DNA from: Schmidtea polychroa
Lineage: Eukaryota
Assembly: GCA_044892525.1 (NCBI GenBank)
Contig: CM097885.1
Location: 18,230,001 to 18,294,000, forward strand
Length of the DNA stretch: 64,000 nucleotides
Direction of reading: 5' to 3'
Numbering within the stretch: position 1 is the first letter of the stretch; each line of letters begins with the position of its first letter. The position numbers and the translations under genes were made by a program. Below, one piece after another: positions 827 to 62,331 of the stretch. Under the pieces are notes generated by a model. That model was not told where the DNA came from. It saw only the letters and a program-made list of their open reading frames with translations, and did no database searches.

Positions 827-938
827 GAAACCATGTCATCTGCGCGGACGTCAATTGCGCGGGTCCAACTGCGCGGACGTCAATTATTATTATTATTATT
901 ATTAATATTATTAATATTGTTATTATTAATATTATTAA

Positions 939-1027
<89 letters not shown>

Positions 1028-1215
1028 GTAGTATTAATCTATATACTCCGAGTCTATCCGACAAAATATTTTGTCCCCCTATGGGTAATGCTCACAAGGG
1101 TACTGCTCAAGCTCAACAACTCACAAGGGTATTATTAAACAATTGACTACCCGCGCAATGGCCTACCGCGCAGTTGGACCCGCGCAATTGGCGTCCGCGC
1201 AATTGACGTGCTACG
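827..1215. mobile_element. Mutator-like MITE inserted into the PolB gene
   Basis: Imperfect GC-rich TIRs built of TGCGCGG/CCGCGCA units (831-885 vs 1141-1213). Flanked by AGGTTTTTT (818-826) and AGGTTTTT (1216-1223). Removing it and keeping the 9-bp copy restores the frame CYFCKKPIVNPVRDHCH. Confidence 0.75.
884..1035. repeat. (TTA)n microsatellite
   Basis: Seen directly; source of the poly-I/poly-L ORFs. Confidence 0.97.
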
Positions 1216-3356
1216 AGGTTTTTACAGAAGTAGCAATTTCGACAAGATTTAAACTGACGTTCCTCAATGAAAGACATCGGTCCTATCAACTTATTACCTT
1301 CCATATCATAATACGGTATCACAACAGTAGTAGCAATTTCCTTAACTTTTTTAAGAAAATCAGTAATACAGTCAAGGCCATAAAATTCAAAATATTGTTT
1401 AGTATTTTTATAATTATTTATTAATAAAAGGCCTGCTGAACTAGGCATATGAATTTGATGATGACGAACATCAGGGGGTAAAGCCGACTCAAAATCGGCA
1501 TAAATTACAAAAGGTGGTGTTATTGTTTTTGAAAAATTTTGAAATTCGAGATTTTTATTTGAGGGTAAAGTGTAAAGAGTTGTACCTGTCTGATTTTTGG
1601 CACATAATGCGACATGAATATTAAACGCGTTATCTAATCGGAACCCGTTAAGACAGTGTGGGCACCATTGACATCTTATTTGAACGTTACAGTCCGGGTT
1701 CCGATGGCAGTTCATTAGTCTATTGATATTGGTCAGAGCAGTATAATGATATCGATCCTTATTTTCTAATAATAACAAATAAATTGGGTTTCCGTCAGTG
1801 ACCTTAGATCGATGGATAAGACTTAAATCAGGATGTTGAAAGACATAATTATCAGGGGTTTCATCGTCATCAATTATTATAGTTGGAGTGTATGAAAGCA
1901 CATTAATGGCTAATTTTAAATTTATGTTTTTCTTTTCAAATTTAGGAATGTTGATTAATTTCATGGGACAATCCGTGACTTCGTCATATTTTAATTCACT
2001 CAAAAATTCAGTATATTTAGATACTCTTTGAGGATTTTCACCTATTTGATCTTTCTTTAATAAGTAAAGAATGGAATACAGAAAGCATTTATCGTCGCTA
2101 TTTTTGTTGTTAAGTATAGCTTTCTTATTTTTCAATTCAGAAGGGGTTTTAATATATTGATGTCCTGCCAAGCGACTAATTGGTTCATATTTAGTGATAA
2201 TAAAATGTATCTCAAGAATGTTGATAACGCGCCATCCACTGCCTAAATAAGTAAATTGTTCTATTTTTTCATTAAGTTTATGAACCCCTTCGTTTAAAAA
2301 GTCATCAGAAAATGTCGTTGCATTATTAGAAAAGTAATTGTCACGGATTTCACCATCTTTTTCAAATCGAATTAATATCGCAAATTGAATTTTGACGCTC
2401 CCCATTTTATTAATTTCTTTTATTAATTTAGTTTTGATTTTATCAGTTAAAATTATTTTAATTAATTGCGCATCTGATACATCAAAACGTAAAGTCTTGA
2501 TAGCGCCATTTAAATTTATTGTGATTAAGGGTTCATTCTCTAAGGAAGAACCTCCAAATTGAATCAACTCATTATTTATAATATCTACATTATTTATAAT
2601 AGGTATAATTTCATTATCTACAATATTTTCATTATTTATAATAGGTATAATAGGTATAATAGGTACAATTTCATTATTTATAATAGGTATAATTTCGTTA
2701 TTTACAATAGGTATAATTTCATTATTTACAATATTTATAGAGTCATCATCATCACTGATTTCGATGACTTCCTTTTTAATAATTTTATTAGGTATATTAT
2801 TTTCTTTATTTTCAGCAGGTCTTTTATTTTTTGATGTTTTATTTTGTATAATATTTAAAATATCACAGTTATTTTTATTAATTTCCCTAAATAGGTCTTT
2901 TTTATTTACTTTAAAAGAATTTAAATGATTTGAATGTTGTTTAAAAAATTCTTTATATCTAACGCTCTGGGAAGTTTTGCATATGGGGCATATAAAAAAG
3001 TTGATGCCATTAAATTTATGCATGTAATATTTTTTCATGTTTTTATAGCATGAAATACCATGACCGATTGACGACATGCAATATCTTGGGAAAAAAGAAC
3101 CTGATAAAAAAATTATATAAATTAATTTTTAAAAATTAATTCATTAACATATAAATAATATTAAAAAATCAAATATCGCAATGTCGATATTTTGATGTTA
3201 TTATCATTCATTATTATACAAGTCTTTGTAATGAAAACTTGTATAATAATAAATGTTAATACTTAACTATTTAAGGTCATGACTTTGTTATAACTTGCAC
3301 GTGTATTGGATGAGCACTGCATTTTCAGCATAATATTTTCTTCATTTTCCTCATTT

Positions 3357-3435
<79 letters not shown>

Positions 3436-3552
3436 GATAGAGATGTATCTGCATGCTGACTGCAGACTACAAGGTATATTAATATATATTATCATTATTA
3501 ATATTATTATTTAAACTAATGTAGATGCTCATTGCAAACTACAAGGAATAAA

Positions 3553-4209
3553 GGCATAATCCTATTATAAACTGTTTAATTAAAAACAAACTGTTTTATT
3601 TAAAACAAACTGTTTTAATATTTATTGCAAATTATAATACAAATTATAAATTATAATACACAAGTAATAACCTAAATATAATACAATTCACGAAGATCTT
3701 TACATTTTTCGACCAATGTATTTTTATTTAAAGTCAAATCATTAGAAATTTCATCTTGTTGTTGATTTTTTGACCAAAAAAATATAGTCATCAACAAATC
3801 TTTTAGCGGTAACTTGCTATCGAAAAATATTGAGTCGAATCGCACAGAAGTTGATTTTCGGCATGGGAGTGTGCAGCTCCACACATAACCATCAACTAGC
3901 CTTTTCGCTTTTACTAACTTCATGTGTGCATTGCACATTTCACAATCCATGGTATTTTTAATAAGTCCTAAGCTAGCCACAAATTCTAATACTTCAAGTT
4001 TGGATTTTTTCAAGTCATCATAAAGACTGTCGGATTTAAATCTGGTTGCAATTAGCTCTTCATCGTTGTATATTAATTCCGTAAGTTTTGTTATATTTTG
4101 GATTCGCGGCATTTTTATTTTAAATAAATAATTTGGTTAAATATTTAAACAGTGTATTTTAATTAAAACAGTTTGTTTTTAATTAAACAGTGTGTAATAG
4201 GATTATTCC
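3553..4209 (-). mobile_element. Internally deleted Merlin/IS1016(ISXO2)-like DNA transposon
   Basis: About 65-bp TIRs (GGCATAATCCTATTA...AAACTGTTTAATTAAAAACAAACTG vs 4140-4209). ORF 3672-4112 has the N-terminal CEMC...DGYVWSC..PCRKSTSVRFDSIF.DSKL pattern. No TSD found. Confidence 0.75.
3672..4112 (-). pseudogene. Truncated Merlin-type transposase N-terminus (146 aa)
   Basis: Zn-ribbon CxxC...WxC...C and SIFFDSKLPL motif; the DDE domain is missing. Confidence 0.72.
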
Positions 4210-4639
4210 TCATGAAGAATAGCAAATGGAGAAGTACTGAAATGAGTCAAATGACTAACAGTGAATGTGACTGTTACAAAAAAAGCGAAAAAACACCTGT
4301 TATATTATTTCTTAAGCGTTATACTATTTACAATTTTATAATCTCCCAGGTTCGAGGTTGCGGGAGTTGCCAACCCTAATTAATATCCAAAACAATATCA
4401 ATGCTTATATTTCACTTTTGCAATTATTTAACCCAAAGTGTTAATAACTAGGTTAGTAATTATTTTATGGATTAAAAACAAATTAAAATAAAAAAAAACT
4501 GTAAATAATTTATTTATGTTTAAATAACTAAAAATCATTATTGATAAAAGTTTTGTTTTAATAAATGAAGAAACAAATATTAATTATTTTTATAATTCAA
4601 AAATTCGAAATTTAAGAAAATGATTATCTATTATCTTTT

Positions 4640-4909
4640 TAACTATTATCTTTTCTGACACATATTCTACCAGCTTTATCTCGTAGACACATAATGGTTA
4701 GATCAATTACGACTTCTTTTATCAATTCGGGTATTTAATCCATTCCGATTATACAAGGCACAATTAATTTTGGCATTACTGCTAGGTAAATGTCGATTTT
4801 GTTATTTTGATATTTCAACGTTCTCCACCATCTTTCTACAACATCCACTGTTTCTCTAATACAAGCGATGATGTGTTTCAGTTTCATGGTTGTTTTGATT
4901 TCTTTCCAT
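4640..4909 (-). pseudogene. LTR-retrotransposon aspartic protease C-terminal relic
   Basis: Manual translation gives ...KIDIYLAVMPKLIVPCIIGMD*, matching the retropepsin-like IIGMD motif. Confidence 0.5.
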
Positions 4910-5169
4910 CAGAGCCGTAGCTAGGGAAAATGGCGCCCGGGCGAGATTGAAATTTGGCGTCCCTGGTGCCAAAAGAATCCACCACTCCCATTAATTATGT
5001 ACTTACAGGAATGGAATTGATCTTAAAGAGTTAAATTAAGATGCAAAGCTATACAATGCTTAACCAAACTTATATTATAGTAGGTAGATAGTGGCTTACG
5101 GCAACAATTACCCCCCCCGGGGGGGGGGGGGGTTGTTGCAACTTTTTTTTGTTGCAACTTTTGATTACG

Positions 5170-5605
5170 CAATTTTTCACACTATAGTGAGGGGGTCTCG
5201 ATGGTCCTGGGATTTTCAATGCAAAAAAAATTTTTCTATACAAAAACGATGGTCCTGGGATTTGCAATACAAAAAAAATTTTTCTATACAAAAATCCGAC
5301 TACCACTAAAAAAGCATGGAATTTTCACACTATAGTGAGGGGGTCTCGATGGTCCTGGGATTTTCAATACAAATAAAATTTTTTCTATACAAAAACGATG
5401 GTCCTGGGATTTTCAATACAAATAAAATTTTTTCAATACAAAAAGGCGGTCTTCAATAAAAAAGCATGGAATTTTCATACTATAGTGAGGGGGTCTCGAT
5501 GGTCCGGGGATTTTCAATACAAAATTTTTTCAATACAAAAAGGCGGTCTTCAATAAAAAAGCATGGATTTTTCACACTATAGTGAGGGGGTCTCGATGGT
5601 CCTGA
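5170..5605. repeat. Subterminal 100-150 bp tandem units with the palindrome CACTATAGTG plus AGGGGGTCTCGATGGTCC (4 copies; 2 in the right arm at about 21380-21515)
   Basis: Seen directly. Confidence 0.9.
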
Positions 5606-5640
5606 GAAATAGGTGGTCTACACTAGAAAACGTGGTAAAT

Positions 5641-6770
5641 TTTTCAATTAAAGTAAATAATGGTTCTAAAAAATTAAATTATAGTAAATTATGGCTCAAA
5701 TTTTTAAATTACAGTAAATTATGGTCCTAAAAATTAAATTACAGTAAATTATGGTCCAAATTTTTAAATTAAAGTAAATTATGGTCCTAAAAAATAAATT
5801 ACAGTAAATTATGGCTCAAATTTTTAAATTACAGTAAATTATGGTCCAAATTTTTAAATTAAAGTAAATTATGGTTCTAAAAATTAAATTAAAGTAAATT
5901 ATGGCTCAAATTTTTAAATTACAGTAAATAATGGTTCTAAAAATTGAATTACAGTAAATAATGGTTCTAAAAATTAAATTAAAGTAAATTATGGTTCTAA
6001 AATATTAAATTAAAGTAAATTATGGTTCTAAAATATTAAATTAAAGTAAATAATGGTCCAGATTTTTCAATTAAAGTAAATAATGGTCCAAATTTTAAAA
6101 TTAAAGTAAATTATGGTCCTAAAAAATTAAATTACAGTAAATTATGGTCCAAATTTTTCTATTACAGTTAATTATGGTCCTAAAAAATTAAATTACAGTA
6201 AATTATGGTCCAAATTTTTCTATTACAGTTAATTATGGTCCTAAAAAATTAAATTAAAGTAAATTATGGCTCAAATTTTTCAATTACAGTAAATAATGGT
6301 TCTAAAAATTGAAATTACAGTAAATTATGGTCTAAAAATTGAAATTACAGTAAATTATGGTCTAAAAATTAAATTACAGTAAATTATGGTTCTAAAAATT
6401 AAATTAAAGTAAATAATGGTTCTAAAAATTTAATTAAAGTAAATTATGGTTCTAAAAATTAAATTAAAGTAAATTATGGTCCTAAAAAATTAAATTACAG
6501 TAAATAATGGTTCTAAAAATTGAATTAAAGTAAATTATGGTTCTAAAAATTGAAATTACAGTAAATTATGGTCTAAAAATTGAAATTACAGTAAATTATG
6601 GTCTAAAAATTAAATTACAGTAAATTATGGTTCTAAAAATTAAATTAAAGTAAATAATGGTTCTAAAAATTGAATTAAAGTAAATTATGGTTCTAAAAAT
6701 TAAATTAAAGTAAATTATGGTCCTAAAAAATTAAATTACAGTAAATAATGGTCCAAATTTTTAAATTAAG
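5641..6770. repeat. About 30-bp minisatellite (AAATTAAATTACAGTAAATTATGGTTCTAA), roughly 37 units
   Basis: Seen directly; the mirrored, shorter array is at about 20550-21345. Confidence 0.95.
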
Positions 6771-7189
6771 TAATCAATGGTAAAAAATTTTAAATAAGTA
6801 AATTAAAGTAATAATTTTTAAATAAGTAAATTAAAGTAATGTAATAAGTAAATTAAAGTAAGATTTTAAAATTTAATTACAAAATAATAGAAGGTGTTTG
6901 AGAATTGAAATTTTTTAATGAAAATTTTTATGAAATAATTTTTAAGTAATTTTTAATAGAAATTTTAATGAAATATTTTTCAATGGTAATTTTTAATGGA
7001 AATTTTTATGGAATAATTTTTTAAGTAATTTTTAATGGAAATTTTTATGAAATATTTTTCAATGATAATTTTAGATGGAAATTTTTATGAAATATTTTTC
7101 AATGATAATTTTAGATGGAAATTTTTAAGATAATTTTTAATGAAAATTTTTATGAAATATTTTTCAAAGACAAATTTTAATAATAATTC

Positions 7190-8640
7190 AACAACAAACC
7201 AACAACTTAGTACCAACAACCAGTAACTTATGAACATGTATTAACAACCAGATACCTACAACTAGTTACTAACAACCAGTTACCTGATACCATATACCTA
7301 CAACTAGATACCTACAACTAGTTACCTGATACCAACTACTAACAACCACCTACCCATTAACTAGCTACAACCAGCTAACTACTAGATACCACGTACTAAA
7401 TAACTCTCAAACAACCAAGTACTTACAACTAATTACCAGATACCAAGTACTATCAACCAGCTTACAACCTGATACCAACAACTAACAACCAACTACCAAG
7501 TACTTACAACTAGATACTAACAACCAGTTACCTGATACCAAGTACTCACAACCAACAACAACCAGGTACTAAGCATTATTAACCAACTACTAAGTACCTA
7601 CAACCAACCACCTACCAAGTACTAACAACCAACATCAACCAGGTACTAAGCATTAATTACCAACTACCAAGTACCTACCAAGTACCTACAACCACCTAAC
7701 AAGTACTAACAACCAGCTAACAACTAACAACTAGATACCAAGTACTCACAACCAACAACAACCAGGTACTAAGCATTATTAACCAACTACTAAGTACCTA
7801 CAACCAACCACCTACCAAGTACTAACAACCAACAACAACCAACTACTAAGTACCTACAACCAACTAAATACTAAGTACTAACAACCAACCAACTAGGTAC
7901 TAGATACTAAGTACTAACTACCAGCTAACAACTAGCTACCAAGTACTCACAACCAGATAACAACTAACAACCAGATACCAAGTACTTACAACTAGTTACT
8001 AACAACTAGCTACCACCTAACAAGTACTAACAACCAACATCAACCAGGTACTAAGCATTATCAACCAAGTACTAACAACTAGATACCTAGTTACTAACAA
8101 CCCGCTAACAACTAACAACTAGATACCAAGTACCAGTAAATTACGAACATGTATTAACAACCAGATACCTACAACTAGTTACTAACAACTAGTTACCTGA
8201 TAGCAACCAACTAGCTACCAACTACTAAGTACCTACAACTAACATCAACCAGGTACTAAGCATTAATTACCAACTACTAAGTACCTACAACCAACTAACA
8301 ACCACCTACCAAGTACTAAGCATTATCAACCAACTACTAAGTACCTACAACCAACTAGCTACCACCTACCAAGTACTAACAACCAGTTACCAACTACTAA
8401 GCATTAATTACCTACAACTAGTTACTAACAACTAGATACCAAGTACATACAACCAACTAGCTACCAACTACCAAGTACTAACAACCAGTTACCAACTACT
8501 AAGCATTAATTACCTACAACTAGTTACTAACAACTAGATACCAAGTACATACAACCAACATCAACCAGGTACTAGATACCAAGTACTAACAACCAAGTAA
8601 CTTACCTAGTAATAAGCACTGTCAACTAGATACCAAACAC
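7190..8640. repeat. Strand-skewed complex minisatellite (ACCAAGTACT / AACAACCA / ACTAGATACC words)
   Basis: A/C-rich, G-poor on +; mirrored at about 18670-20130. Confidence 0.9.
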
Positions 8641-8952
8641 TTACAAGCAGATGACCACATGAAATTATTGGTTAAATATGAAAATAAGGGTTATAATTAG
8701 TTGTTTAGTAAATTATGGTGTATAATTAAGTAATAAAGAATAATTAGGTAAATTAAAGTAATAATTTTTAAAAAAGTAAATTAAGGTTCAAATTTTAAAT
8801 TAAATAAGTAAATTAAAGTAATAATTTTTAAATAATTAATGTACTAAGTAAATTAAACTAAGATTTTTAAATTTATTATAAAAAGATTGAATAACCACCA
8901 ACTTTTTTGAGAAATGTAATTTATAATGGAAATTTAAATGGAAATTTAAATG

Positions 8953-9004
<52 letters not shown>

Positions 9005-11134
9005 TCAACAGTTACCAACAATCGGTTACTGATTATTTTTTAACTAGGTGCTAACAAATACTTACAACATGATACCACGTACTAACTAACTCTCAAACAA
9101 TCAGATACTTACAACTAGCTACTAAATATTCTTCACTGTATTTTATGAAATGCTTTTTAAATTAATTTTTTATCTATCTTCAAAAATATATTTAATTACA
9201 ATCATTAGAAAAACCTTTTCAAATTTAACAAAAATGATGATTTTCATCAAAAAACCACAACTCATCACCACGTGGAATTCAAAATAATTACAATGAAAGA
9301 CTAATGAATTCTAATTTACAAAACATTCTTCTTTTAAATGATAACTACTGACTTATTATTGCAATGTAAAAATCGCATTCAATAAATACTTATTGTTGAT
9401 CGGTTTTATTATATATACTCTGAGTTTATCCGACAGGATGTTTTGACCCCCTAAGGGTACAGGTCGTAAGGGTACTGGTCGTAAGGGTACTGGTCGTAAG
9501 GGTATTAGTCGTAAGGGTACTGGTCGTAAAGGTACTAGTCGTAGGGGTATTGATCACTCTTAATCCCCACCTACTCATTAATTAGCTACCATGTACTAAC
9601 CACTAGGTTTCAAACAACTAAATACTAAACACTTACAACCATGTACTAACAACCACCATCAAAACCCATCGAGAAATTAACAAATATCAACCTACAACTA
9701 GATACTTACAACCAGATACCTGCTACCAAGTACTTACAACAAGATACCAAGTACCAACAATCAACTAACCACACATAAAAATAATAGCAATTAAATACAA
9801 AATATTCTTCATCGCATACACTATTTTCTTATCAAAATCTAAAAAGTCAATCAGATACCAACTACCAAGTACCAAGTACTAACAACCAACTACCTAGAAC
9901 CAACAACTATGTACTAACAAATTGATCTTTAAAAGCAAATACTCTTCACTTGAAAAATTGGATGAAAAATTATTTGAACTCAAGGCATCAATAACTTGGT
10001 AAAAATTGATTAAATAATTGTAAAAATTTAAATTATTCAAAATAAATATCATAAAAATTTAATTAATGGACAAGAAAAAATTCTAATCATCCAATAAATA
10101 AAAAAAAATGCTGATCATTATCAAAGTCAGCAATCTACAATAAAAATAATTATCATTAAATTCCAAAAGAGACTAGATAACTAATGATAACATCTAACAA
10201 ACCAGTAAATTCATTCAAATGACAATAATTGGTATATCCAAGTGAATTCTCCAATAAAATCATCTAAAAAGCATCATTTTCTCCCTAAATATATCAATAT
10301 TTAAAGATTGGTATTTTAATGATAAGTACTTGTTAAAGATCATATATTCTCCTCAAACTAACAAGATTCCTTAAAATCCCCTTAAATGACTATATTTCAA
10401 CCCTTAATTCGTATTATTACAAATATTTCACTAAAATCATCTAAAAAGCATCAAATTTCCCTGAAATAACTATCTTTAAAGATTAGTATTTTATCGATAA
10501 ATATCCTTAAAAGGTTATATATTTACCTCAGACTAATAAGATTGCTTAAAATCCCCTTTAAATGACTTTAATTCCTATTATCACGAATATTATAAAACAT
10601 GTAAAATAATTTGGTCATTAACCCTAAATAATTGATAAAATCTAATGATAAAACCGGTTATAATTAAATTTTTGTTAATCACTGTACTCGAAATTTAAAA
10701 TAAATATAACTGACTAGGTCCCATTAAAAGATTAAATTTATCCATTCAATAAAATATATTTCTTCAAATGATCATTTTACCGATATTCAATCGATTTAAT
10801 TACTAATTAAAATCAATCGATAGATTTCTTTCAATAAAGATCAATTTTATTTAGTCGATGTTTTAAGTCCATATTTCTAAACTTTTGTCATTCTCCGTCT
10901 AAATAAAGATAAAAATAATTTAAAGTTGATATCAATCCCAATTATCTGTAAAGTTTTCATTGTCAAAACCAAGTAAATCGATCATTATCCTTACTTAATA
11001 ATCCATAAATCTAAATTAATATACAATGGATTAATCACAACCTAATAAAACGATATAATTATTATTGATTCATAACTGACTAATGTATTGCAATTTCCTT
11101 AAAAAACATTGATATTTTACCAACATCACCCTTA

Positions 11135-11380
11135 AAAAATCATATATTCCCATCGAAACCCTTCCCTCATTAAAAGCAATCGACTATATCCCCCTTACAA
11201 TCATATATTCCCATCTTAACCCATCCCTCATTAAATTCAATCGACTATATCTCCCTTACAATGATATATTCCCATCTTAACCCATCTCACATTAAATCTA
11301 ACCGACTATATCCCCTTAAAAGATCATATTTTCCCCATCTTAACCGATCACTCATTAAATCTCACCGACAATATCCCATC
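11135..11380. repeat. About 60-bp tandem repeat, roughly 4 units
   Basis: ATCATATATTCCCATCTTAACCCATCCCTCATTAAA...CGACTATATCCCCCTTA repeated; mirrored at about 15925-16170. Confidence 0.85.
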
Positions 11381-14300
11381 TTATCCGATCTCTCAGCAAA
11401 TATTTCTACCCTTTTAAACATCTATCCGATTATATCCCTTATTTTCCCTAAAGATTTCACCCACTTGAGCCCTTTAATATGTATCAATCCTCTTAAAATC
11501 CTCAGAGAACTTCAAAAATATGACTTTTAATTAATTGTTATAGAACCAGACAAATAATAAGAGCCCACTAAAAGATCAAAATTCACTAAATTTTCTACAA
11601 ATATATACCATCAAATACTGGAGATGATATATATTGATTGATCATAATTCTTCATCGATTCAGCCAATCATTTTCAAGCGCTATCAGCAAACTAAATTTC
11701 AGTATATTCTACAATCATTTTCAAGTAAATTTAAATTCCTTGTTAAAGTTAACTAGTTTCTTAGCTCATGTTTTTAAAAGTTCATCAATGAGTAAATATT
11801 CTTAGAAAATTATTGAAAAAATTATTTAGTGAAATATATTACAAACTTATCATTAAAAATTTATTCTATCACTTGAAATTAATTTTTATTTAAAAACTAT
11901 TCAATAAAATACCACTAATTATCAAGAAATTAATTAAATTTATCAATTAAATTTATCACCATTAAAACTTTTAATCAGTCAACATGAAATTCTTAGAAAA
12001 TTGTTCAATATCCTCATAAAAATTTATCCTACCACTTGATTATTGTACAAACTCTAATTATTAACCTCATTAAAAATTAAAAATACATCCAATTATCAAG
12101 AAATTAATTAAATTTATCTTAGAACTAACTTTGAATTATTAAATATTCATTCAATAATCATGAAATCCACAAAAATAATAGAAATTTACAAAAATCAAAG
12201 AAATTCACAAAAATGATAAAAATTCATGAAAATGATAGAAATTCACAAAAACGATAAAAATTCATAAAAATTATAGCAATTCGCAAAAATAATAGGAAAT
12301 TCACAAAAATGATAGATATCCACAAAAATTACAGATAATCAAAAAAATTACGGAAAATAATAGAAATCCGCAAAAATAATAGAAATTCACAATAAAAAAC
12401 GATAAAAATTCACAAAAAAGATAGAAATTTACTTGAATAAAACCATCAACTCTAAAAATTATGAATACCTTAAACAACAAATTTGCCTAAATAATCATTC
12501 AAATAAAAACATTAAATACCTTTACGACTAATACCCTTGCGACATGTTGAATGTGAGTAGTACCCTTGTGAGCAATACCCATAGGGGGACAGAATATTTT
12601 GTCGGATAAACTCAGAGTATATATTAATTAACTCATTTTTCATTGAATTAGTCAAATTATCATAAATTTCGATAAAAAATCTAAAGTGGTAAGCAATGTA
12701 AAGAGAAATATTCTTTAAACTTTGATAAAATTAACAATGAAGGTGGTAAGAATCTTCATTAAAGTGAGGAAATTACTCGATGATAAATTCAAATGGGTGA
12801 AAATAATTGGTAGAATAATTCATTAATGGAGGTAAATAATGAGAAGTGGCATAGATAAGAAGAAGGTTGATAAAAATGTAAATATATTAATTGAATTTAT
12901 TTAAAATTATTTCATAAAATTCATAAATTTAATAAAAAAACTTTTAAAACAAATATTTGTGGGGAATAATTAATCAAAATCGGGGGGATATTAGTGATTA
13001 ATTAATGGAAAATAGAGAATCGGGGAATACAAATGATTAAATAGTGGAAATTGGGGGAATATAGGAGATTAAATAGTGGGGTATTGAGAATCGGTGGAAT
13101 ATAAGTGAGAAGGATATGTAATTTAAACTATTTTATTACGTAACAAGCCATGACTAGTTTATTGCATAACAAGCTGTGAACGGGATTTTACCAACATTTT
13201 ACCTAGTATTGAATTTAATTTTTATTGTATTTTTAAATTGTATATATTTTCAATATCATTCTATTGTTTTATTCCAATAATAAGTTTAAAAAGTATATAA
13301 TGATTAATAAATTAATATCGTGTTAACATTTATTTGAGAATTTAAAAAACTTTACTTAAAATTTAGTGAAATATTTAATTTTGATTGTATTTTATAAGAC
13401 ATATATTTGAGTATTAACTTATTTTGATTGAAGTATTATATTCAATATTATGATGATTTTTTTTTCTAAATTAAAATATTTTAGTGTAAAATAGTAAATT
13501 TAATAATGAATAGAATACAATATTAAAGGACTTTTTAAAAAGAAAAATTACTTTCTATTACCTAATTCCATCATTAAGTTTAAGAAGTCTATAACTGTTA
13601 ATAAATCAATTTCTTATTCACATTTTCTTATAAAACTTATATTTTTAAATTAAGTGTAAAGAATTTAATTTTAATTGTATTTTATAAGTCATTTATTTGA
13701 ATATTTATCTTATTTTTATTGAAAGGAGTAATATAATTAATAATATGATAATTGTTTTTGAAATATTTAGTGTAGAATAATAAATTTATTAATAAATAAT
13801 TATTACAATATTAAAGGACTTATACAACAAAATTTTTGTCTTATTCCATAAAAAGTTTTAAAGTATATAACTGGTAATAAATTAATTTCTTATTTAAATT
13901 TATTTAAAAAAGCTTTACTTATAAAATTTATATTTTCGAAGACTTATATTTGAATATTAACTTATATTGATTGAAAAGGGTAATTGATTTAGAAATTAAT
14001 TAGTGTAAATCAAAACATTTAAATTATTAAGGTATTAAAGTACCTATTCAAAAATTTAAAAAAAAAAAAACCTAATCAATAATTTTCAATAAAATACTAT
14101 TCACAGCTTGTTATGTAATAAACTAGTCACGGCTTGTTATGTAATAAAATAGACGCGGCTTGTTACGTAATAAAATAGTTTAAATTACATATCCTTCTCA
14201 CTTATATTCCACCGATTCTCAATACCCCACTATTTAATCTCCTATATTCCCCCAATTTCCACTATTTAATCATTTGTATTCCCCGATTCTCTATTTTCCA

Positions 14301-18301: not shown

Positions 18302-18365
<64 letters not shown>

Positions 18366-20130: not shown

Positions 20131-20549
20131 ATTATTATTAAAATTTGTCTTTGAAAAATATTTCATAAAAATTTTCATTAAAAATTATCTTAAAAATTTC
20201 CATCTAAAATTATCATTGAAAAATATTTCATAAAAATTTCCATCTAAAATTATCATTGAAAAATATTTCATAAAAATTTCCATTAAAAATTACTTAAAAA
20301 ATTATTCCATAAAAATTTCCATTAAAAATTACCATTGAAAAATATTTCATTAAAATTTCTATTAAAAATTACTTAAAAATTATTTCATAAAAATTTTCAT
20401 TAAAAAATTTCAATTCTCAAACACCTTCTATTATTTTGTAATTAAATTTTAAAATCTTACTTTAATTTACTTATTACATTACTTTAATTTACTTATTTAA
20501 AAATTATTACTTTAATTTACTTATTTAAAATTTTTTACCATTGATTACT

Positions 20550-21345: not shown

Positions 21346-22179
21346 ATTTACCACGTTTTCTAGTGTAGACCACCTATTTCTCAGGACCATCGAGACCCCC
21401 TCACTATAGTGTGAAAAATCCATGCTTTTTTATTGAAGACCGCCTTTTTGTATTGAAAAAATTTTGTATTGAAAATCCCCGGACCATCGAGACCCCCTCA
21501 CTATAGTGTGAAAAATTGCGTAATCAAAAGTTGCAACAAAAAAATTACGGCAACAAAAAAAAGTTGCAACAACCCCCCCCCGGGGGGGGGGGGGTAATTG
21601 TTGCCGTAAGCCACTATCTACCTACTTATTATAACGAAAACCAATTAATTATAAATATTTATTATACATGTGTATATACATTAATATTTAAAATTTCTTT
21701 ACTCCGTATTTATTAAACCTAAGTTCAGAGTTTTGATCATTAAGTTTCTATTAAGGTTACTATTATAATATATTTGAGAAGATCAAGTGATCAACTTTAA
21801 CATTTAACATTGAATTCTAAATAAAAGAAATTAAAGATTATCATCAATTGTCCTTCCTTTTTTCAAAAGATTTTCAAGATTTTTCTAGGCTAAGTAGCAT
21901 TTTCTATGCTCAAAACTGTTTTCATGATCAGCCATCTTCGGATTTAGTCGCCCGTTTGCAAAAACCTTTAGATATACCAGCAAAACAGTTTTGTTTTAGT
22001 TTAACTTCTGAAAACAGTAAACATGGAAACCAGAATATAAAAATTTAATATGAAAAAAAGAAAGAAAAGCAAAAAAAATTTAAATGATCATTTCACAGTT
22101 TTGGCGCCCTTCGACTCGGCGCCCGGGCGGTCGCCCCATTCGCCACCCCCTAGATACGACTCTGCTTTCCATAATCGGT

Positions 22180-25014: not shown

Positions 25015-25349
25015 TTGCAAATTTTCGACTGTTTGGTTTGTCCGTCGTATTTTAAAATCTAAGAAGGATTTACCTTTTAGATTAAATTGCTCGGGTTGAA
25101 ATTTTGGGTAATTGATAATGATTTAAATTCGCTATTTATATTATTTTCTGCGTCTTTCTTACTATTAAAATTAAATTAATATTTTTTAAGTGCTATTATT
25201 TGTTATTATTATTTGCATCATAAATATTTAAGTGTTATATTATCTTAGAGTAGTATGATTGGAGCTCCCCAGACCAGGAGCTCCCCGCGCCACATATACC
25301 CCCTCCCCCCCCCGGGAAAAAAAAATTTTTTTTTTTTAATTTTTTGTTT

Positions 25350-26420
25350 TAATTAATTGGCCTGGCGGGCTCACACTTTTTTTCATCCCAAAAATTAATG
25401 TTCTCGTTAACAGATTTTATTGACCGATACCTCATCTTAAAGCACAGTCCAAGACCTTTCGAATGAGCTATAGGTATCATATATATCTTTAATAGTTTTA
25501 ATGTTATTAACAATTGATGACCACCATCTTTTCAACGTTAAATTATTATTATTTTCCAAAATATTATTAATTGGCCTGGCGGGCTCACACTTTTTTTCAT
25601 CCCAAAAATTAATGTTCCCACCAACGGATTTTATTGGACGATACCTCATCTTAAAGCTCAGTCCAAGACCTTTCGATTGATCCATAGAAGGTATCATCAT
25701 CATTAATATTGACAAAGTTATTAACAATTGATGACCACCATCTTTTCAACGTTAAATTATTATTATTATTCAAAATATTATTAATTGGCCTGGCGGGCTC
25801 ACACTTTTTTTCATCCCAAAAATTAATGTTCCCATTATCCGAATTTATTAATCGATAGCTTATTTTGAAGCGTAGTCTAAGACCTTTCAATTGAGCCATA
25901 GAAGGTATCATCATCATTAACATCGGCAAAGTTATTAAAGTTTTACCGAGACCATTTTTCAAGGTCATTTATTTTTTCAAGGTCATTTATTTTTTCAAGG
26001 TCATTTATTTTTTCAAGGTCATTTATTTTTTCAAGGTCATATTTTAAAATTTAAATGTACAGAGTTCCCGACAACGATAATTATTCAACGATAGCTCATT
26101 TTAAAGCCCAATGCAAGATCTTTCGATTGATTCATAGAAGGTATCATCATCATTATTATTGACAAAGTTATTAACAATTGATGACCACCATCTTTTCAAC
26201 GTTAAATTATTATTATTATTCAAAATATTATTAATTGGCCGGGCGGTGACATACTTTTTCTCATCCCAAAAATTAATGTTCCCATTATCCGAATTTATTA
26301 ATCGATAGCTTATTTTGAAGCGTAGTCTAAGACCTTTCAATTGAGCCATAGAAGGTATCATCATCATTAACATCGGCAAAGTTATTAAAGTTTTACCGAG
26401 ACCATTTTTCAAGGTCATTT
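25350..26420. repeat. About 214-bp tandem units carrying five dyad-symmetric sites; mirrored at about 37030-38110
   Basis: TTAATTGGCCTGGCGGGCTCACAC recurs at about 25353, 25567, 25781 and (variant) 26231. Confidence 0.9.
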
Positions 26421-26585
26421 ATTTTTCAAAATATTATTTTCAAGGTCAAGGTCAAGGTCATTTATTTTTTCAAGGTCATTTAATTTTTAAATAAAAGGTC
26501 AAGGTCATTTATTATTTTCAAGGTCATTTATTTTTTCAAGGTCATTTATTTTTTCAAGGTCATTTATTTTTTCAAGGTCATTTAT
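25955..26585. repeat. 18-bp TTTTCAAGGTCATTTATT arrays (two blocks: about 25955-26040 and 26405-26585)
   Basis: Seen directly; mirrored at about 36880-37040 and 37405-37510. Confidence 0.92.
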
Positions 26586-26611
26586 TATTTTTTAAGTTTT
26601 TAGTTTCTAAG

Positions 26612-26663
<52 letters not shown>

Positions 26664-26835
26664 ATTATAGTTATAATTATAATTATTATATACTCCTAGT
26701 CTATCCGACAAGATATTCTGTCCCCCTATGGGTACTGCACACAAATGTACTACTCACACTCAACAAGTCACAAGGGTACTGCTCACACTCAATATGTCGT
26801 AAATTATTATTATTATTATTTCAAATACAAGTTCA

Positions 26836-26875
<40 letters not shown>

Positions 26876-27240
26876 TATTATTACGCGCACGGGGAATATT
26901 ATTGTCATATATACTCTTAATCTATCCGACAAAATATTCTATCCCTTTATGGGTATTGCTCATATGGGTAATGGTCAAAGGTGTACTACTCACATTCAAC
27001 ATGTCTCAAAGGGTATAATATAATTATTATTAAATTCTGACCAACTTAAATCAATGAAGGGGTAGAACAAAAATATATTAAGTTGCGGTATTTTAAATTT
27101 AAAAATATTTTAAAAACTTATTTTGACACTAAAGTTTACTTAATTAACAAAGACATAATTATTGCACATGCTTTGCATAAATATTATTATTATTTTTTTA
27201 ATTTTCAATATTTTCTTTTAAAGTATTAACACGCGCGGGA

Positions 27241-27314
<74 letters not shown>

Positions 27315-27318
<4 letters not shown>

Positions 27319-27827
27319 GTTAATGAAAAATCTAAAATATGGTTTACACACACAACCCCTCAACCATTATTATTATTATCAATATCAAAAACCTAAAATA
27401 TTTTCTACACACACACACATGCACAACTCATTAACCATTATTATTATCATTATTAGTGAAAACCTAAAATATTTTTTACACACACACACAACCCATTAAC
27501 CATTATTATTATTATTATCAATATTAAAAACCTAAAATATTTTTACACACACACATACAACTCATTAAACTTATTATTATTATTATTATTATTGCAAATA
27601 TTAGTCAAAAACCTAAAATATTATTTACACTCACACAACCCATTAACAATTATTATTATCAATATTAGTGAAAACCTAAAATATTTTCTACACACACACA
27701 CAACCCATTAACCATTATTATTATTGCAAATATTAGTCAAAAACATAAAAACACTCATAAACCATTATTATTATCAATATTCGTGAAAACCTCAAATATT
27801 TTTTACACACACACACAACCCATTAAC

Positions 27828-27884
<57 letters not shown>

Positions 27885-27920
27885 CAATATTAGTGAAAAA
27901 ACCTTAAATAATTTTTACAT
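27315..27920. repeat. About 65-bp minisatellite (AAAACCTAAAATATTTT..ACACACAC..AACCCATTAACCATTATTATT); mirrored at about 35530-36135
   Basis: Seen directly. Confidence 0.9.
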
Positions 27921-30900
27921 ACTAAGTTATGGGGTAGAGTATTATTATGTTTGCAGTATTCTGTGTTTGCCTTTACAGGAAGTTGTCAATAATTTTACAC
28001 ACACATTCTATATACACATACCTTGTTTAACATGGGTGTATATACTCCTAGTCTATCCGACAAAATATTCTGTCCCCCTATGGGTATTGCTCACAAAGGT
28101 ACTACTCACACTCAACATATCGCAAGGGTATATTAATTATGGTTAGTAAATAAAACCTATCACACACACTTTAATATTTAAACGAAAAAAAATCAAGACA
28201 AGAGAGGACAAGGCAAAGTTAATGCATTTAGTATTGCCAGGCCTAATGAGCAGTGACCAAATATCTGTGCCTGAAAGACACGGTGGATATTTGTTCGCGT
28301 CCACAAGGGTCGTCTGTGCCTCCCCCAAGTGGGGTCAGGAGAACCTGGGCATTATAGCTTTCCGTACGGAACATTACGCCTAGCATGGGTAGTCAACTAC
28401 CAGCACATTCGAAACGTATAATTTCAAAATACATGCGTCATTGGCACTATAACCAAATTAATTAATGTTTTCACTAACACAAAAATATATTTACAGAGGC
28501 CTCCCACTAGTTGGATTACAACCGCCCACCACGACGATCAGCTTGTAAATATATATTAATTAAGGGATAAAGAGGACCCACCCAACCCTATTATATTTAA
28601 TTTACAAATTTTTCTCGCTCTTCTGTTGGTATTCTATCTCAAAATTATCATCTCCATCGGGCCATTTGGAATACATCTTGCAAATTGGACGTATTTCTTA
28701 GTTTCTGATGCGGCGTCCACTATCATTGCTAAAATTTATATTGATTTAAAAGCAATTAACTTACATTATCTAACATTTTATCATCACAGGCTTGATAAAT
28801 TAGGCAACTGTTATTTGTGGTATACTTTTTCAATGTCATTTCCCACCATAAAACACAGATACCTAAATATAATATATATATATATTTTAAAAGATTAATT
28901 CATGTCTTACATTAATAATAATATTCTTCAGGTATGACGAGTACTTTACTTAATTGCTAAAACGTCGATTTTTCCCATTTTTCTTGACATTTGTTGAAAG
29001 TTTACATAATTTAAGTCTGATAATTCATGTTGAAGGACACCCACAATCAGCTAATTCATTTAAGAAATCCAGAACATAGCAATGTTTCACCATTTTATCT
29101 GGTTCATCTTCTTCATAATTATATAATTCATTTTCTTCATTACTAAGTAAATTAATTAAAATATTGTAGTAAATTCTTTATTTACTTACTTTATGGATAC
29201 TAAAACGAAAGAAATAAAGTTATATCAAAAGTATATTTAAATAAATTAAATTTAAATAATTTAATTTAGTTATTTAAAAATATTTAAACAATTTAGTTAT
29301 TTAAGCATATTTAAACATTAACATTATTATATAGTATAATTTTATATAATATTATAATTTTATGTACACTTATATATCCTTCATTTAATTTTTTAAATTC
29401 AAAATTTATAATGAAGATTCTTTGAATTAAAAAATATTCTGTTAGTATTTCCAGGCAGTAAACAACGAATTCAATAATTAAAATCTTAATTTTCATGTTG
29501 TTAGGGTTGTGGCCAGAATTTAATCGCCATCTAATCGTTTGTTCTCAATTTCGCTCATTTTTGTTCAAAACATTCAGGTGAGTTGTTATCTGGAAAGTTT
29601 CTTTGAGCTCAGTTTTGTTAAAACACTCACGGTATTTTTGAGGGACATGACACTGGGAATAAATTAACAATGGGTGGTCTTGCATACATGTTGTTGGTTT
29701 GAACTGTTGATTTATTTTAGAAATATGTATATTAAAAACATTTAAGGTATCATTCAGTAAAATAATATAGTATTTTTGAGTATTTTTAGTTGATTTATAA
29801 ATAACAGTATTTTGATATATCAATAAAGACCATATACTCCTAGTTTATCCGACAAAATATTCTGTCCCCCTATGGGTATTGCTAGCAAGGGTACATCTCA
29901 CATTCAACAAGTCGCAAGGCTATATTAATCATTTAGAAATTCTTAGGTAATTTAGTGAGATGATCAGAAATTCGTGAATATTTTAAATGTAACTTTACAC
30001 TTATGTCGAGCGACTAATTTATTGGTTAACTTTGTAGTCATTTAAAGCAAAAATTAATTTATTCATCTAATGTTCGTTACAATAGTTAATAATATGAGAA
30101 AAACATGGTCATTATTCATTGATAATTTTAAATTCTTTATCATTTGGAGTAAATTTGTTTGAGGCAAAAATAATTAAAGGAGTCATAATAGAAATATGGT
30201 TATCATTTATCCAATTAAGGGGCCTATTATTTAGAAATATATATTATAAAGTAACAATTATTTTCTAATTTAATTAGATGATCATTAGACGTAATATATC
30301 TTTGCGAGAAATTTAAGATGTTTGAGTAACCAAAACATGGACATTTTGTGCGATAAATTTATGAATATTGCTTAATTTTGTTATTTTTAGTCATTTAAAA
30401 TAATATTTAGCAAATGTAATTTAGCAAAATATCATTTATCCACCCGATAACAATATTCCTTCAATAGATTAACTGATATTCAACCTATTTAATTTCTGGA
30501 AATATAATTAAAATCATAAATTTCCTTCATGAAAGTTAAATTTTCTTTAGTTGTCGATGTCTAACTCTTTTAAGTCAATATTTTTGTTACCGTTATCTTC
30601 ATAATGAATGTCCGTCTTTAAAATGTTAAATAAAATAATTTAAAGCAATAACCTTTGATATCAATTATCTCTAAATATTTCAAATATTGCATTGTCAAAA
30701 CCAAGTAAATTAGTCATTACCCATTAATAAAACCGTGGATAATTAATAAAAACTGGTTCTGAAACATAAATTACTGTGCAATAACATTCATCACAACCTC
30801 TAAAACGATATAATTTCACAGGAACTATTCATAGCTGACTATTTCCCTTGAAAATTTGATATTTTACCAATAAGAATATATAAATATTCAAAACATTAAC

Positions 30901-33900
30901 CGATCCCTCACCAAATATCTTTACCCCTTAAAACACCTTAAATCGTATATATTACCATCTTAACCTTCACTAAATCCAACCGAATATAATTTCATCCACT
31001 TGTGCCCTTTAATAAATCTTAAAATCTATAGAAAATTCTTCAAAATATGAATTTTATTTAATTGTCACAGACATTCTTCCATTGAAATAATTTAGTAGCT
31101 AAATTCAAAGAGTCCACTAAAAGATCAAAATTCATTAAAATAAATATTTAACCACATGTGTCATCAAATACCTAACTAGAGATGATAATATCTCATTGAT
31201 TGATCATAATTATAACCATTATAACATGATATATCTTTCAAACTAAATTTAGGTATATTTTACAATAATTTTCAAGTAGATTTCAAATATATCATCATCG
31301 TGAAAAAATTAGATTGTTTCAACTTTAGATTTTCAATATTTTAAAGTTCATCAATGTGTAAATATTCTTAGAAAAATATATGAAAAAATTATTTAGTCAA
31401 ATTATCATTACAAAGTCATCATCATCATCAAAATTAATAAAATATAGCAAATTATCAAGAAATTAATTAAATTTATCTTAGAATTAACACTAAACCTTAA
31501 ATATTCTTTCAATTAACATGAAATTCACAAAAAAATATTAGTAAAATCCCGCTAACTCTAAAAAATTACCAATGAATTTAATGCCAAATAATAACCAAAT
31601 ATTTGCCTAAATAAAATCATTAAAACACACCAGTACCTTTACGACCAGTACCCTTACGACCAGTACCCTTACGACCAATACCCTTACAAGCAGTACCCAT
31701 AGAGGGAGAAAATATTTTGTCGGATAAACTCCGAGTATATATAATAAAACGAATTAACAATAACTCCATCAAATTGAATCAGTCAAATTATCACAAATTT
31801 TAATAAAAAATCTTATTCTAAAGTGGTAAGCAGCGTAAAATCGAAAGATAATTTTAATAACACAGAGATAAAATTAACAATATTATTCTCAGGTGGTAAG
31901 AATCATCATTATTCTATGATTAATTAATAATGAAATTCAAAAAGGTGAAAATAAGGGTTTGAATTATTCATTAATGGAACGTAAATGTAAATATACCGAG
32001 AAGTGTCATAGATAAGATGGAAATATATTAATTGCATTTATTTAAAATTATTTCATGAAATTCATAAAAATTTATAAAAATGATCACTTTAATAAAAAAA
32101 AAATATTTAATTCAATGTTCAAAGAAATAGTTGTTGGGAGGATTAGTGGAAAATGGGGGGCTATAAGTGATGAGTATTTATAAATTATTTCTAATATATG
32201 AGTGACTAACGAATAATAATAATGTGATAAACAATTATTTTGATAAAGTATTTAATCCAAAAATGACAAACATACATAACAAATGGTATTTGACTAAGCA
32301 ATTATGATAACTTTATATTTTAAATTTTGATTAACTCCTTTAATATTGAATTAATAATTATGAGATTTACTATTTTACATTAAATATTTCAAAAACAGTT
32401 ATTCTAAAAGATAATTTAAGATACATTACTCTTTTTAATCAAAATAATCTCTCAAAGTTAAGAAGGAAACAAAGTGTGTCAGAACACATACCCAGCATTA
32501 ACTTTACTTAAATTTATGAAAACATCAAGTAAGCAATGATAATAGAGGGATAACAGACTCAAAAATAAAATATTATTCTCAGGTGGTAAGAATCTTCATT
32601 AAAGTTAGGAAATTATTTATTATTCTGTGATAAATTAATAATAAACTTCAAAGGGGTTAAAATAAGTGTTAGAATAATTCATTATTGGATTATGGAAGGT
32701 TAATGAAAATATACTGAGAAGTGGCATGGATATATATTAATTGTATTTATTTAAAATTATTTCATAAAATTCATAAATTTCATAAAAATTCATAAAAAAC
32801 GTTCACTTTAATAAAAAAATATTTAATACAATTTTAAAGGAAATATTTGCCAGGAGAATATAACCAATAAATTAGTCGCTCGACATAAGTGTAAAGTTAC
32901 ATTTAAAATATTCACGAATTTCTGATCATCTCACTAAATTACCTAAGAATTTCTAAATGATTAATATAGCCTTGCGACTTGTTGAATGTGAGATGTACCC
33001 TTGCTAGCAATACCCATAGGGGGACAGAATATTTTGTCGGATAAACTAGGAGTATATGGTCTTTATTGATATATCAAAATACTGTTATTTATAAATCAAC
33101 TAAAAATACTCAAAAATACTATATTATTTTACTGAATGATACCTTAAATGTTTTTAATATACATATTTCTTAAATAAATCAACAGTTCAAACCAACAACA
33201 TGTATGCAAGACCACCCATTGTTAATTTATTTCCAGTGTCACGTCCCTCAAAAATACCGTGAGTGTTTTAACAAAACTGAGCTCAAAGAAACTTTCCAGA
33301 TAACAACTCACCTGAATGTTTTGAACAAAAATGAGCGAAATTGAGAACAAACGATTAGATGGCGATTAAATTCTGGCCACAACCCTAACAACATGAAAAT
33401 TAAGATTTTAATTATTGAATTCGTTGTTTTCTGCCTGGAAATACTAACAGAATATTTTTTTTAATTCAAAGATTCTTCATTATAAATATTTGAATTTAAA
33501 AAATTAAATGAAGGATATATAAGTGTACATAAAATTATAATATTATATAAAATTATACTATATAATAATGTTAATGTTTAAATATGCTTAAATAACTAAA
33601 TTGTTTAAATATTTTTAAATAACTAAATTTAAATTATTTAAATATAATTCTGATATAACGTTATTTCTTTCGTTTTAGTATCCATAAAGTAAGTAAATAA
33701 AGAATTTACTAAAATATTTTAATTATTTTACTTAGTAATGAAGAAAATGAATTATATAATTATGAAGAAGATGAACAAAATGGTGAAACACTAAATGACT
33801 TATGTTCTGGATTTAGAGATTTCTTATTAAAACATGAATTATAGAAGAAAATGAACCAGACAAAATGGTGAAACATTGCTATGTTCGGGATTTCTTAAAT

Positions 33901-35568
33901 GAATTAGCTGATTGGGGGTGTCCTTCAACATGAATGTTTACTTAAATTATGTAAACTTTCAACGAATGTCAAGAAAAATGGGAAAAAACCGATGTTTTAT
34001 CAATTAGATATTGTAAAGTACTACCTGAAGAATATTATTATTAATGTAAGACATGAATTAATTCTTTAAAATGAAGGATATATAAGTGTACATAAAATTA
34101 TAATATTATATAAAATTATACTATATAATAATGTTAATGTTTAAATATGCTTAAATAACTAAATTGTTTAAATATTTTTAAATAACTAAATTAAATTATT
34201 TAAATTTAATTTATTTAAATATACTTTTGATATAACTTTATTTCTTTCGTTTTAGTATCCATAAAGTAAGTAAATAAAGAATTTACTACAATATTTTAAT
34301 TAATTTACTTAGTAATGAAGAAAATGAATTATATAATTATGAAGAAGATGAACCAGATAAAATGGTGAAACATTGCTATGTTCTGGATTTCTTAAATGAA
34401 TTAGCTGATTGTGGGTGTCCTTCAACATGAATTATCAGACTTAAATTATGTAAACTTTCAACAAATGTCAAGAAAAATGGGAAAAATCGACGTTTTAGCA
34501 ATTAAGTAAAGTACTCGTCATACCTGAAGAATATTATTATTAATGTAAGACATGAATTAATCTTTTAAAATATATATATATTATATTTAGGTATCTGTGT
34601 TTTATGGTGGGAAATGACATTGAAAAAGTATACCACAAATAACAGTTGCCTAATTTATCAAGCCTGTGATGATAAAATGTTAGATAATGTAAGTTAATTG
34701 CTTTTAAATCAATATAAATTTTAGCAATGATAGTGGACGCCGCATCAGAAACTAAGAAATACGTCCAATTTGCAAGATGTATTCCAAATGGCCCGATGGA
34801 GATGATAATTTTGAGATAGAATACCAACAGAAGAGCGAGAAAAATTTGTAAATTAAATATAATAGGGTTGGGTGGGTCCTCTTTATCCCTTAATTAATAT
34901 ATATTTACAAGCTGATCGTCGTGGTGGGCGGTTGTAATCCAACTAGTGGGAGGCCTCTGTAAATATATTTTTGTGTTAGTGAAAACATTAATTAATTTGG
35001 TTATAGTGCCAATGACGCATGTATTTTGAAATTATACGTTTCGAATGTGCTGGTAGTTGACTACCCATGCTAGGCGTAATGTTCCGTACGGAAAGCTATA
35101 ATGCCCAGGTTCTCCTGACCCCACTTGGGGGAGGCACAGACGACCCTTGTGGACGCGAACAAATATCCACCGTGTCTTTCAGGCACAGATATTTGGTCAC
35201 TGCTCATTAGGCCTGGCAATACTAAATGCATTAACTTTGCCTTGTCCTCTCTTGTCTTGATTTTTTTTCGTTTAAATATTAAAGTGTGTGTGATAGGTTT
35301 TATTTACTAACCATAATTAATATACCCTTGCGATATGTTGAGTGTGAGTAGTACCTTTGTGAGCAATACCCATAGGGGGACAGAATATTTTGTCGGATAG
35401 ACTAGGAGTATATACACCCATGTTAAACAAGGTATGTGTATATAGAATGTGTGTGTAAAATTATTGACAACTTCCTGTAAAGGCAAACACAGAATACTGC
35501 AAACATAATAATACTCTACCCCATAACTTAGTATGTAAAAATTATTTAAGGTTTTTTCACTAATATTG

Positions 35569-35622
<54 letters not shown>

Positions 35623-36131
35623 GTTAATGGGTTGTGTGTGTGTGTAAAAAATATTTGAGGTTTTCACGAATATTGATAATAATAATGGTTTATGAGTGTT
35701 TTTATGTTTTTGACTAATATTTGCAATAATAATAATGGTTAATGGGTTGTGTGTGTGTGTAGAAAATATTTTAGGTTTTCACTAATATTGATAATAATAA
35801 TTGTTAATGGGTTGTGTGAGTGTAAATAATATTTTAGGTTTTTGACTAATATTTGCAATAATAATAATAATAATAATAAGTTTAATGAGTTGTATGTGTG
35901 TGTGTAAAAATATTTTAGGTTTTTAATATTGATAATAATAATAATAATGGTTAATGGGTTGTGTGTGTGTGTAAAAAATATTTTAGGTTTTCACTAATAA
36001 TGATAATAATAATGGTTAATGAGTTGTGCATGTGTGTGTGTGTAGAAAATATTTTAGGTTTTTGATATTGATAATAATAATAATGGTTGAGGGGTTGTGT
36101 GTGTAAACCATATTTTAGATTTTTCATTAAC

Positions 36132-36206
<75 letters not shown>

Positions 36207-36571
36207 TCCCGCGCGTGTTAATACTTTAAAAGAAAATATTGAAAATTAAAAAAATAATAATAATATTTATGCAAAGCATGTGCAATAATTATGTCTTTGT
36301 TAATTAAGTAAACTTTAGTGTCAAAATAAGTTTTTAAAATATTTTTAAATTTAAAATACCGCAACTTAATATATTTTTGTTCTACCCCTTCATTGATTTA
36401 AGTTGGTCAGAATTTAATAATAATTATATTATACCCTTTGAGACATGTTGAATGTGAGTAGTACACCTTTGACCATTACCCATATGAGCAATACCCATAA
36501 AGGGATAGAATATTTTGTCGGATAGATTAAGAGTATATATGACAATAATATTCCCCGTGCGCGTAATAATA

Positions 36572-36611
<40 letters not shown>

Positions 36612-36783
36612 TGAACTTGTATTTGAAATAATAATAATAATAATTTACGACATATTGAGTGTGAGCAGTACCCTTGTGACTTGTTGAGTGTGAGTAGTAC
36701 ATTTGTGTGCAGTACCCATAGGGGGACAGAATATCTTGTCGGATAGACTAGGAGTATATAATAATTATAATTATAACTATAAT

Positions 36784-36853
<70 letters not shown>

Positions 36854-62316: not shown

Positions 62317-62331
62317 TTTGTTTATTATAAA

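Follow-up and report, generated by a model that had tools for sequence, protein, structure and literature searches.

Why does one short sequence recur so often in a single stretch of the Schmidtea polychroa genome? The stretch, called here the window, comprises the 64,000 nucleotides between positions 18,230,001 and 18,294,000 of contig CM097885.1 (assembly GCA_044892525.1). It contains two giant palindromic elements, A and B, and, distributed over them and one small transposon, 14 copies of a module of about 100 bp ending in TATA. A sequence-only reading had listed these copies, and all 14 were found within the window at the positions and in the orientations it gave. We think, tentatively and with a confidence just short of even, that the module is a cassette of Polinton/Maverick terminal repeats captured repeatedly by two unrelated cut-and-paste transposon families, and that it is probably a TATA promoter bound by protein, with open DNA that likely offers gap repair a favoured template.

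Genome copies of the module were located by pattern search of its exact 35-nt core. The core has 8,832 matches in the 781-Mb genome and the reversed control has 0, so this abundance is not due to chance. The first 100 exact matches on contig C1 all lie within Polinton-type DNA: 94 were assigned by flank words to eight classes (A, B and Polinton terminal regions) and 6 were judged by eye. The module also sits in the terminal regions of gene-bearing Polinton relatives of A and B. At 12 distinct ends of the gene-bearing terminal-repeat type it stands 520-1,398 bp from the terminus, 3' of the last gene and its AATAAA, facing the terminus and usually followed by (AAT)n. This Polinton family encodes an ATPase, an integrase and a protein with a TATA-binding protein (TBP) domain. 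The earlier proposal of a cis element gains support in that the terminal-repeat position assigns the module to Polintons, but a place upstream of open reading frames (ORFs) is not borne out: 0 of 26 Polinton gene starts have a same-strand tail within 600 bp, and a YATAAAC box is found instead at 12 of the 26 distinct starts. A second Polinton family yielded no module in the parts fetched, in which its termini could not be clearly made out. Rfam gave no match to the module, and the metagenome and viral contigs scanned gave 0 matches to its pattern. Part of the second Polinton family, with an A32-like ATPase and at least 150 close genome matches, occupies window 60800-64000 and locus L033. Distal to the module, Polinton terminal regions (L014-L016, L026, window 36880-37520) hold dense arrays of TGAGTCA and TCAAGGTCA, which we take to resemble AP-1 and NR5A sites.

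Elements A and B are also of Polinton origin. Both have AGTAG at both termini and perfect 6-bp target duplications; AGT-type ends and 6-bp duplications likewise mark the terminal inverted repeats (TIRs) of Polintons/Mavericks (PMC8097293), and we therefore regard A and B as gene-less Polinton derivatives. No ORF of at least 120 aa occurs within either element, and both lack the Polinton core genes (polymerase, integrase, ATPase, capsid), which makes them non-autonomous. As the sequence-only reading had it, the inner module pair of A faces inward and the outer pair outward, and the arm modules of B face outward; B has, in addition, one central module on the + strand. In other B copies this inner module is an inward-facing pair, one partner of which is missing from the B of the window. 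The symmetric placement is real, but no special meaning attaches to it: the palindrome arms are mirror copies, 96-99% identical, so the symmetry is a by-product and the 14 modules reduce to 8 independent positions (2 in A, 5 in B and 1 in the small transposon). Each arm holds 2 modules in A and 4-5 in B, versus 1-3 in gene-bearing Polinton termini.

It had also been claimed that the module stays conserved at the homologous site of A and B while the flanks have diverged. The core is indeed better matched (44 of 48 bases ungapped, 92%) than the flanks (84-86% ungapped, 67-70% gapped), but the contrast is weak (Fisher p=0.22), and so is the argument for selection drawn from it. Better evidence of constraint is the fixed layout of the module over 12 real variants from non-homologous places. 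Two side observations concern the same elements. The sequence downstream of the inner modules (window 12680-12760 and 31820-31910) has recurring GTGGTAAG words that A and B have both retained; one of them lies directly 3' of CAG, and they are possible splice signals of a short transcript. The B arms (window 28451-28542 and 34911-35002) give a weak Metazoa_SRP match, 30 bits against a cut-off of 70.

The layout consists of one to six upstream units of 14-15 bp followed by TACCC, a G run, TCGGATARA and TATA. TCGGATA begins 26 bp after the start of TACCC, and TATA follows 5-6 bp after the GGATA word. This spacing is fixed over a variable middle across the 12 variants, two of them divergent; positions that never vary among them are TAC.C, GGG, TCGGATA.A and some individual bases. 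A TATA at a fixed distance from upstream sites is the arrangement of an RNA polymerase II TATA promoter. Of 8 native contexts free of AAT tracts, 4 have an initiator-like A at +33 to +35 from TATA, against a shuffle mean of 0.39 (p=0.0003, for an interval picked post hoc). Assembled contigs of runs presumed to be RNA extend over both sides of some modules; such contigs show neither starts nor strands and speak neither for nor against transcription. A hairpin under selection, in RNA or in DNA, was rejected: the central 16-bp palindrome is perfect in 1 of the 12 variants, G-T-paired in 3 more and interrupted by at least one broken pair in 8, and none of 6 module copies folds above its shuffles.

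The copy at 1040 is a real module, but a passenger in a Mutator-like element (MULE), which the sequence-only reading had overlooked. The 389-bp insert interrupts a polymerase gene, and none of 9 other copies of that gene has it; DNA_pol_B_2 matches the 32-553 piece of this remnant weakly and the 1113..3077 piece not at all. Its ends are common to elements of ~2 kb that encode FLYWCH and MULE domains, long copies of the family exceed the cut-off for PF04500 and PF10551, and most other copies have 8-bp target duplications, within the 8-9 bp of Mutator-like elements. The end pattern has 184 genome matches; the census is based on 100 listed, most of which were fetched, and comprises 48 two-ended elements. 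Among the matches listed, the module is present in 42 of 43 short two-ended elements and in 0 of 5 long ones, and the only short element without it is a plain internal deletion. These captures fall into three junction types: type I, with 40 copies; L079, whose donor was of the inner type; and L154, in which two modules stand back to back in a palindrome.

A genome-wide search for unusual flanks led to other small carriers. The tail followed by [CG][CGT] has 19 matches, 17 of which lie in known Polinton contexts; the remaining 2 are the small elements L181, single-copy by its end pattern, and L196. The latter belongs to a Merlin family; Merlins are defined in PMC8101967 by GG-starting TIRs, an 8-bp target duplication and a DDE_Tnp_IS1595 domain, all of which were found here, the domain in a 1,376-bp copy. 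The Merlin TIR pattern has 103 genome matches, of which 100 were listed and fetched, yielding 40 elements flanked by target duplications. Among those listed, 33 of the 34 flanked elements of 200-600 bp hold the module, 32 with the TATA tail, and the major type has 18-19 copies. The five flanked Merlins without the module are two hairpins of 48-54 bp, two plain deletions and the full-length copy. With elements of identical flanks (L247-250, L255-258) counted once, donor, orientation and junction distinguish 13 separate captures among the matches listed, or 10 at a cautious count. The donors include the terminal-repeat, A-outer, B-arm and inner types, together with two divergent variants, one of which has 13 exact matches, all within Merlin ends, so that its donor was not found. 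Elsewhere, a Merlin derivative spanning 24 kb has a Polinton end inserted inside its module (L204-L205, L335), and window 3570-4200 holds a 146-aa ORF, by eye a Merlin-type transposase fragment (no Pfam match), flanked by inverted 19-bp repeat arrays.

Over both families there are about 16 separate captures (13 at the cautious count), plus L181, and all hold the module. Their donors belong to several variants, the module lies in either orientation, and the host-side junctions differ; no foreign filler without the module was seen in the censused elements of the two families. In 20 aligned captures the match to the best donor starts 31-177 bp before TCGGATA and extends to 23-257 bp beyond it; the ends vary and the core is constant, all 20 spanning at least -31 to +23 around TCGGATA. 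The chance that a random 200-bp filler holds the core is 0.002-0.005 genome-wide, and at most 0.12 if element B was the donor. As many captures are single-copy, amplification alone cannot explain this bias. The retained host sequence differs among captures (~60-320 bp on the left), and conversion of one founding capture therefore cannot explain it either. Among 17 rare captures, 16 have no separate donor within ~5 kb, although elements may have moved since; the 17th is a tandem array of itself. Clear junction microhomology (2-5 nt) was detected at a few junctions (L075, L079, L206, L223) by a script that is unreliable in A/T-rich sequence.

That TIR transposons capture sequence, and that factor sites are spread by MITEs (miniature inverted-repeat transposable elements), was known already (PMC8277862; PMC5950925). 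The module carriers resemble the Pack-TIRs described in PMC8277862, which form by gap-filling or FoSTeST: foreign filler lies between transposon ends, junctions vary, and single- and multi-copy cases occur. The fillers known there are varied and biased to nearby DNA. Here, by contrast, the foreign fillers seen in the two superfamilies all contain one and the same ~100-bp cassette, and no donor lies within ~5 kb. In Brassica, several MITE families amplified and spread one regulatory motif, the E2F site, as reported in PMC5950925; the S. polychroa case differs in that a whole multi-part cassette of a virus-like element was taken, many times independently per family. We found no literature in which unrelated superfamilies take up one virus-derived cassette again and again, in a search that left most subscription papers and repeat databases outside. 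Nor did it return a description of such an internal cassette in Polinton terminal repeats; Repbase-type libraries could already list these MITEs.

These results bear on an open question, namely the origin of MITE internal sequence and why some MITEs burst. In two unrelated superfamilies, captures have converged many times on a single cassette that stems from a virus-like element, a route by which regulatory DNA of one mobile element is spread by others. The captures also form a natural deletion series, with a minimal element of ~55-65 bp, and point to a cis function in Polinton terminal repeats.

How could the module come to be captured so often? We infer that it is bound by protein, kept open and transcribed. 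A sequence-specific factor would bind the repeated units and the GGATA site, placing TBP (that of the host, or the TBP-like protein of the element itself) on the TATA, and the bound module may keep nucleosomes off 150-200 bp. When MULE or Merlin excision leaves broken ends, these could invade this open module via short homology and copy it, thereby filling the gap, and some module-bearing derivatives would have spread further afterwards. Gap-filling with microhomology accounts for most single-copy Pack-TIRs (PMC8277862), insertion donors in human cells are preferentially transcribed loci (bioRxiv 2022.09.30.509517), and those in yeast are biased to fragile, R-loop or microsatellite DNA (PMC11724301).

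Several observations weigh against this proposal. The human donors favour the transcribed side of the start site, whereas the fillers here centre on the promoter. No gene lies downstream of the module, none of the 26 Polinton gene starts has it upstream, and many copies run directly into (AAT)n. Three of the four initiator-like matches share a TTATT word and may have a common ancestry, and microhomology is clear at only a few capture junctions. Since both families were discovered via a module-bearing member, the census is limited to MULE and Merlin and cannot be extended to all DNA transposons. Finally, the module occurs in tandem arrays (L335 with at least 7 units of ~268 bp, L265 with 5) and in inverted duplications (L154, L181, L196, L247), and the Merlin derivative L247 is folded back at the central palindrome and has lost the TATA tail. 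A replication start site would account for arrays and inverted duplications no less well.

The main rival is that the module is an internal start of DNA synthesis, a promoter-origin comparable to p5 of adeno-associated virus (AAV): repeated initiation would yield short extra DNA pieces with the module at their centre, which would be captured at breaks, and carriers would gain rounds of copying. We regard this as possible, at a distinctly lower probability. Defective Polintons would then collect the module, in line with the excess per arm in A and B; repeated units, a TATA and an A/T-rich tract are all present; head-to-tail arrays and fold-back duplications surround it; and the fillers are centred on its core. 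The AAV p5/cis-acting replication element (PMC2930156) is similarly a compact TATA element with repeated sites near the genome end, which acts as promoter and alternative origin and yields head-to-tail concatemers. Unlike p5, the module faces outward, with no gene behind it, no fixed filler end and no Rep-like initiator or fixed nick site identified, and its activity is putative. A start of DNA synthesis would also have to account for the lack of a fixed nick position, both filler ends being variable, for a hairpin that is not conserved, and for the absence of the module from the fetched parts of the second Polinton family, where the termini were not clearly visible. Moreover, Polintons are thought to prime replication at their termini. 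A promoter and a start of DNA synthesis can both be true. It is tempting to go one step further and propose a portable amplifier acting across transposon superfamilies: the TBP-like factor of the element itself would read a Polinton promoter-origin, and any DNA carrying it would gain extra copying. We consider this unlikely. If true, it would explain together the giant palindromic satellites and the tandem and fold-back arrays, as well as the MULE and Merlin MITEs built almost only around the module, and such MITEs would be double parasites, using the transposase of one element and the replication signal of another.

Alternatively, capture may be random and the module an internal transposition enhancer, so that selection alone shapes the census. 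Amplified lineages do all carry the module (40 copies of MULE type I, 18-19 of the major Merlin type, 13 pattern matches of the divergent type), and internal sequences alter MITE mobility according to PMC9921582. This explanation is nonetheless quite unlikely, given the many single-copy captures: unamplified fillers without the module are expected to be at least 8-fold more numerous, and none was seen. Selection may add to a bias in formation and does not replace it.

We give little credence to a functionless repeat that was homogenised by gene conversion among thousands of copies, with one capture per family converted later. The non-significant contrast between core and flanks at the A/B site agrees with it, as do the recombinant module/flank combinations in L179 and L189. 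The captures, however, differ in host length and orientation, and the two divergent captured variants share the same spacing. Still less credible to us is a signal for packaging or integration of the Polinton particle, which transposons would meet through co-localising with Polinton DNA; the distance of 0.5-1.4 kb from the termini and the multiplication in gene-less derivatives agree with it, but it leaves unexplained the module-centred fillers from deep in A and B and the TATA at fixed spacing. The tiny self-moving Helentron/DINE-1-like element offered as the alternative by the sequence-only reading is largely refuted and has next to no probability left: a short conserved core beside a microsatellite recalls DINE-1/HINE in outline, as described in PMC4067079, but the module has neither paired subterminal repeats (an inverted unit lies within 1.4 kb downstream in 3 of 81 loci, each time the upstream units of another module), nor fixed ends in the captured pieces, nor a conserved 3' hairpin, nor dispersal into random flanks, its flank types being few and the 19 copies with the tail followed by [CG][CGT] being largely Polintonic.

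Two other kinds of promoter were considered and rejected. A U6/U2-type promoter, suggested by a nematode motif, fails in that the module is absent upstream of 15 U6 and 10 U2 loci. An RNA polymerase I promoter was rejected for five ribosomal DNA (rDNA) stretches, which lack the module; these represent only units with the top-scoring 5.8S sequence. The upstream regions of the host U6 and U2 genes (L101, L116-L121) share instead an ATGCAAA...TTGAAA block ~55-70 bp before the gene, a candidate proximal element of this species. The host U6 small nuclear RNA genes (L101-L115, G000:C2:142.94-142.98 Mb) form a 793-bp tandem array with an opposite-strand tRNA-Lys(CTT) in each unit, which recalls the tRNA-dependent U6 genes of trypanosomes. 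In the rDNA units (L128-L138) the distance from the 5.8S gene to a 28S landmark differs by 3-8 kb, which suggests insertions in 28S or the spacer.

Table 1. Elements and module copies in the window, in window coordinates.
Feature	Position	Strand	Remarks
Non-autonomous Mutator-like element, 389 bp	827..1215	-	one module and an (AAT)n tract; inside Polinton polymerase remnant
Module, terminal-repeat type	1040..1131	-	captured by MULE
Polinton protein-primed polymerase remnant	1113..3077	-	ORFs; broken at MULE insertion, continues at 32-553
Element A	5079..21626	.	gene-less Polinton derivative, a palindrome of 16.5 kb with AGTAG termini; TATTAT duplicated at the target
Module, A-outer type	9412..9549	-	15-bp tandem upstream units; outward-facing
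Module, A-inner type	12517..12623	+	faces central spacer
Module, A-inner mirror copy	14683..14789	-	
Module, A-outer mirror copy	17757..17894	+	
Element B	25249..38225	.	gene-less Polinton derivative, a palindrome of 13.0 kb with AGTAG termini; TCTTAG duplicated at the target
Module, B outermost	26687..26778	-	followed by (AAT)n
Module, B second	26908..27000	-	
Module, B third	28039..28130	-	
Module, B fourth	29831..29922	-	
Module, B-inner type	31634..31741	+	position homologous to A-inner
Module, mirror of B fourth	32967..33058	+	
Module, mirror of B third	35323..35414	+	
Module, mirror of B second	36447..36539	+	upstream units extend to ~36430
Module, mirror of B outermost	36669..36760	+	upstream units extend to ~36647

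Besides the features in Table 1, the window holds two intronless amidase genes that are 96% identical (41514-43247 and 52670-54427), the second of them split into two ORFs. On contig C1, the region G000:C1:114-240 kb (L045, L048, L049, L051, L053, L065) consists of tandem repeats of ~2.1 kb with the same 192-aa ORF, which appears HMG-box-like by eye.

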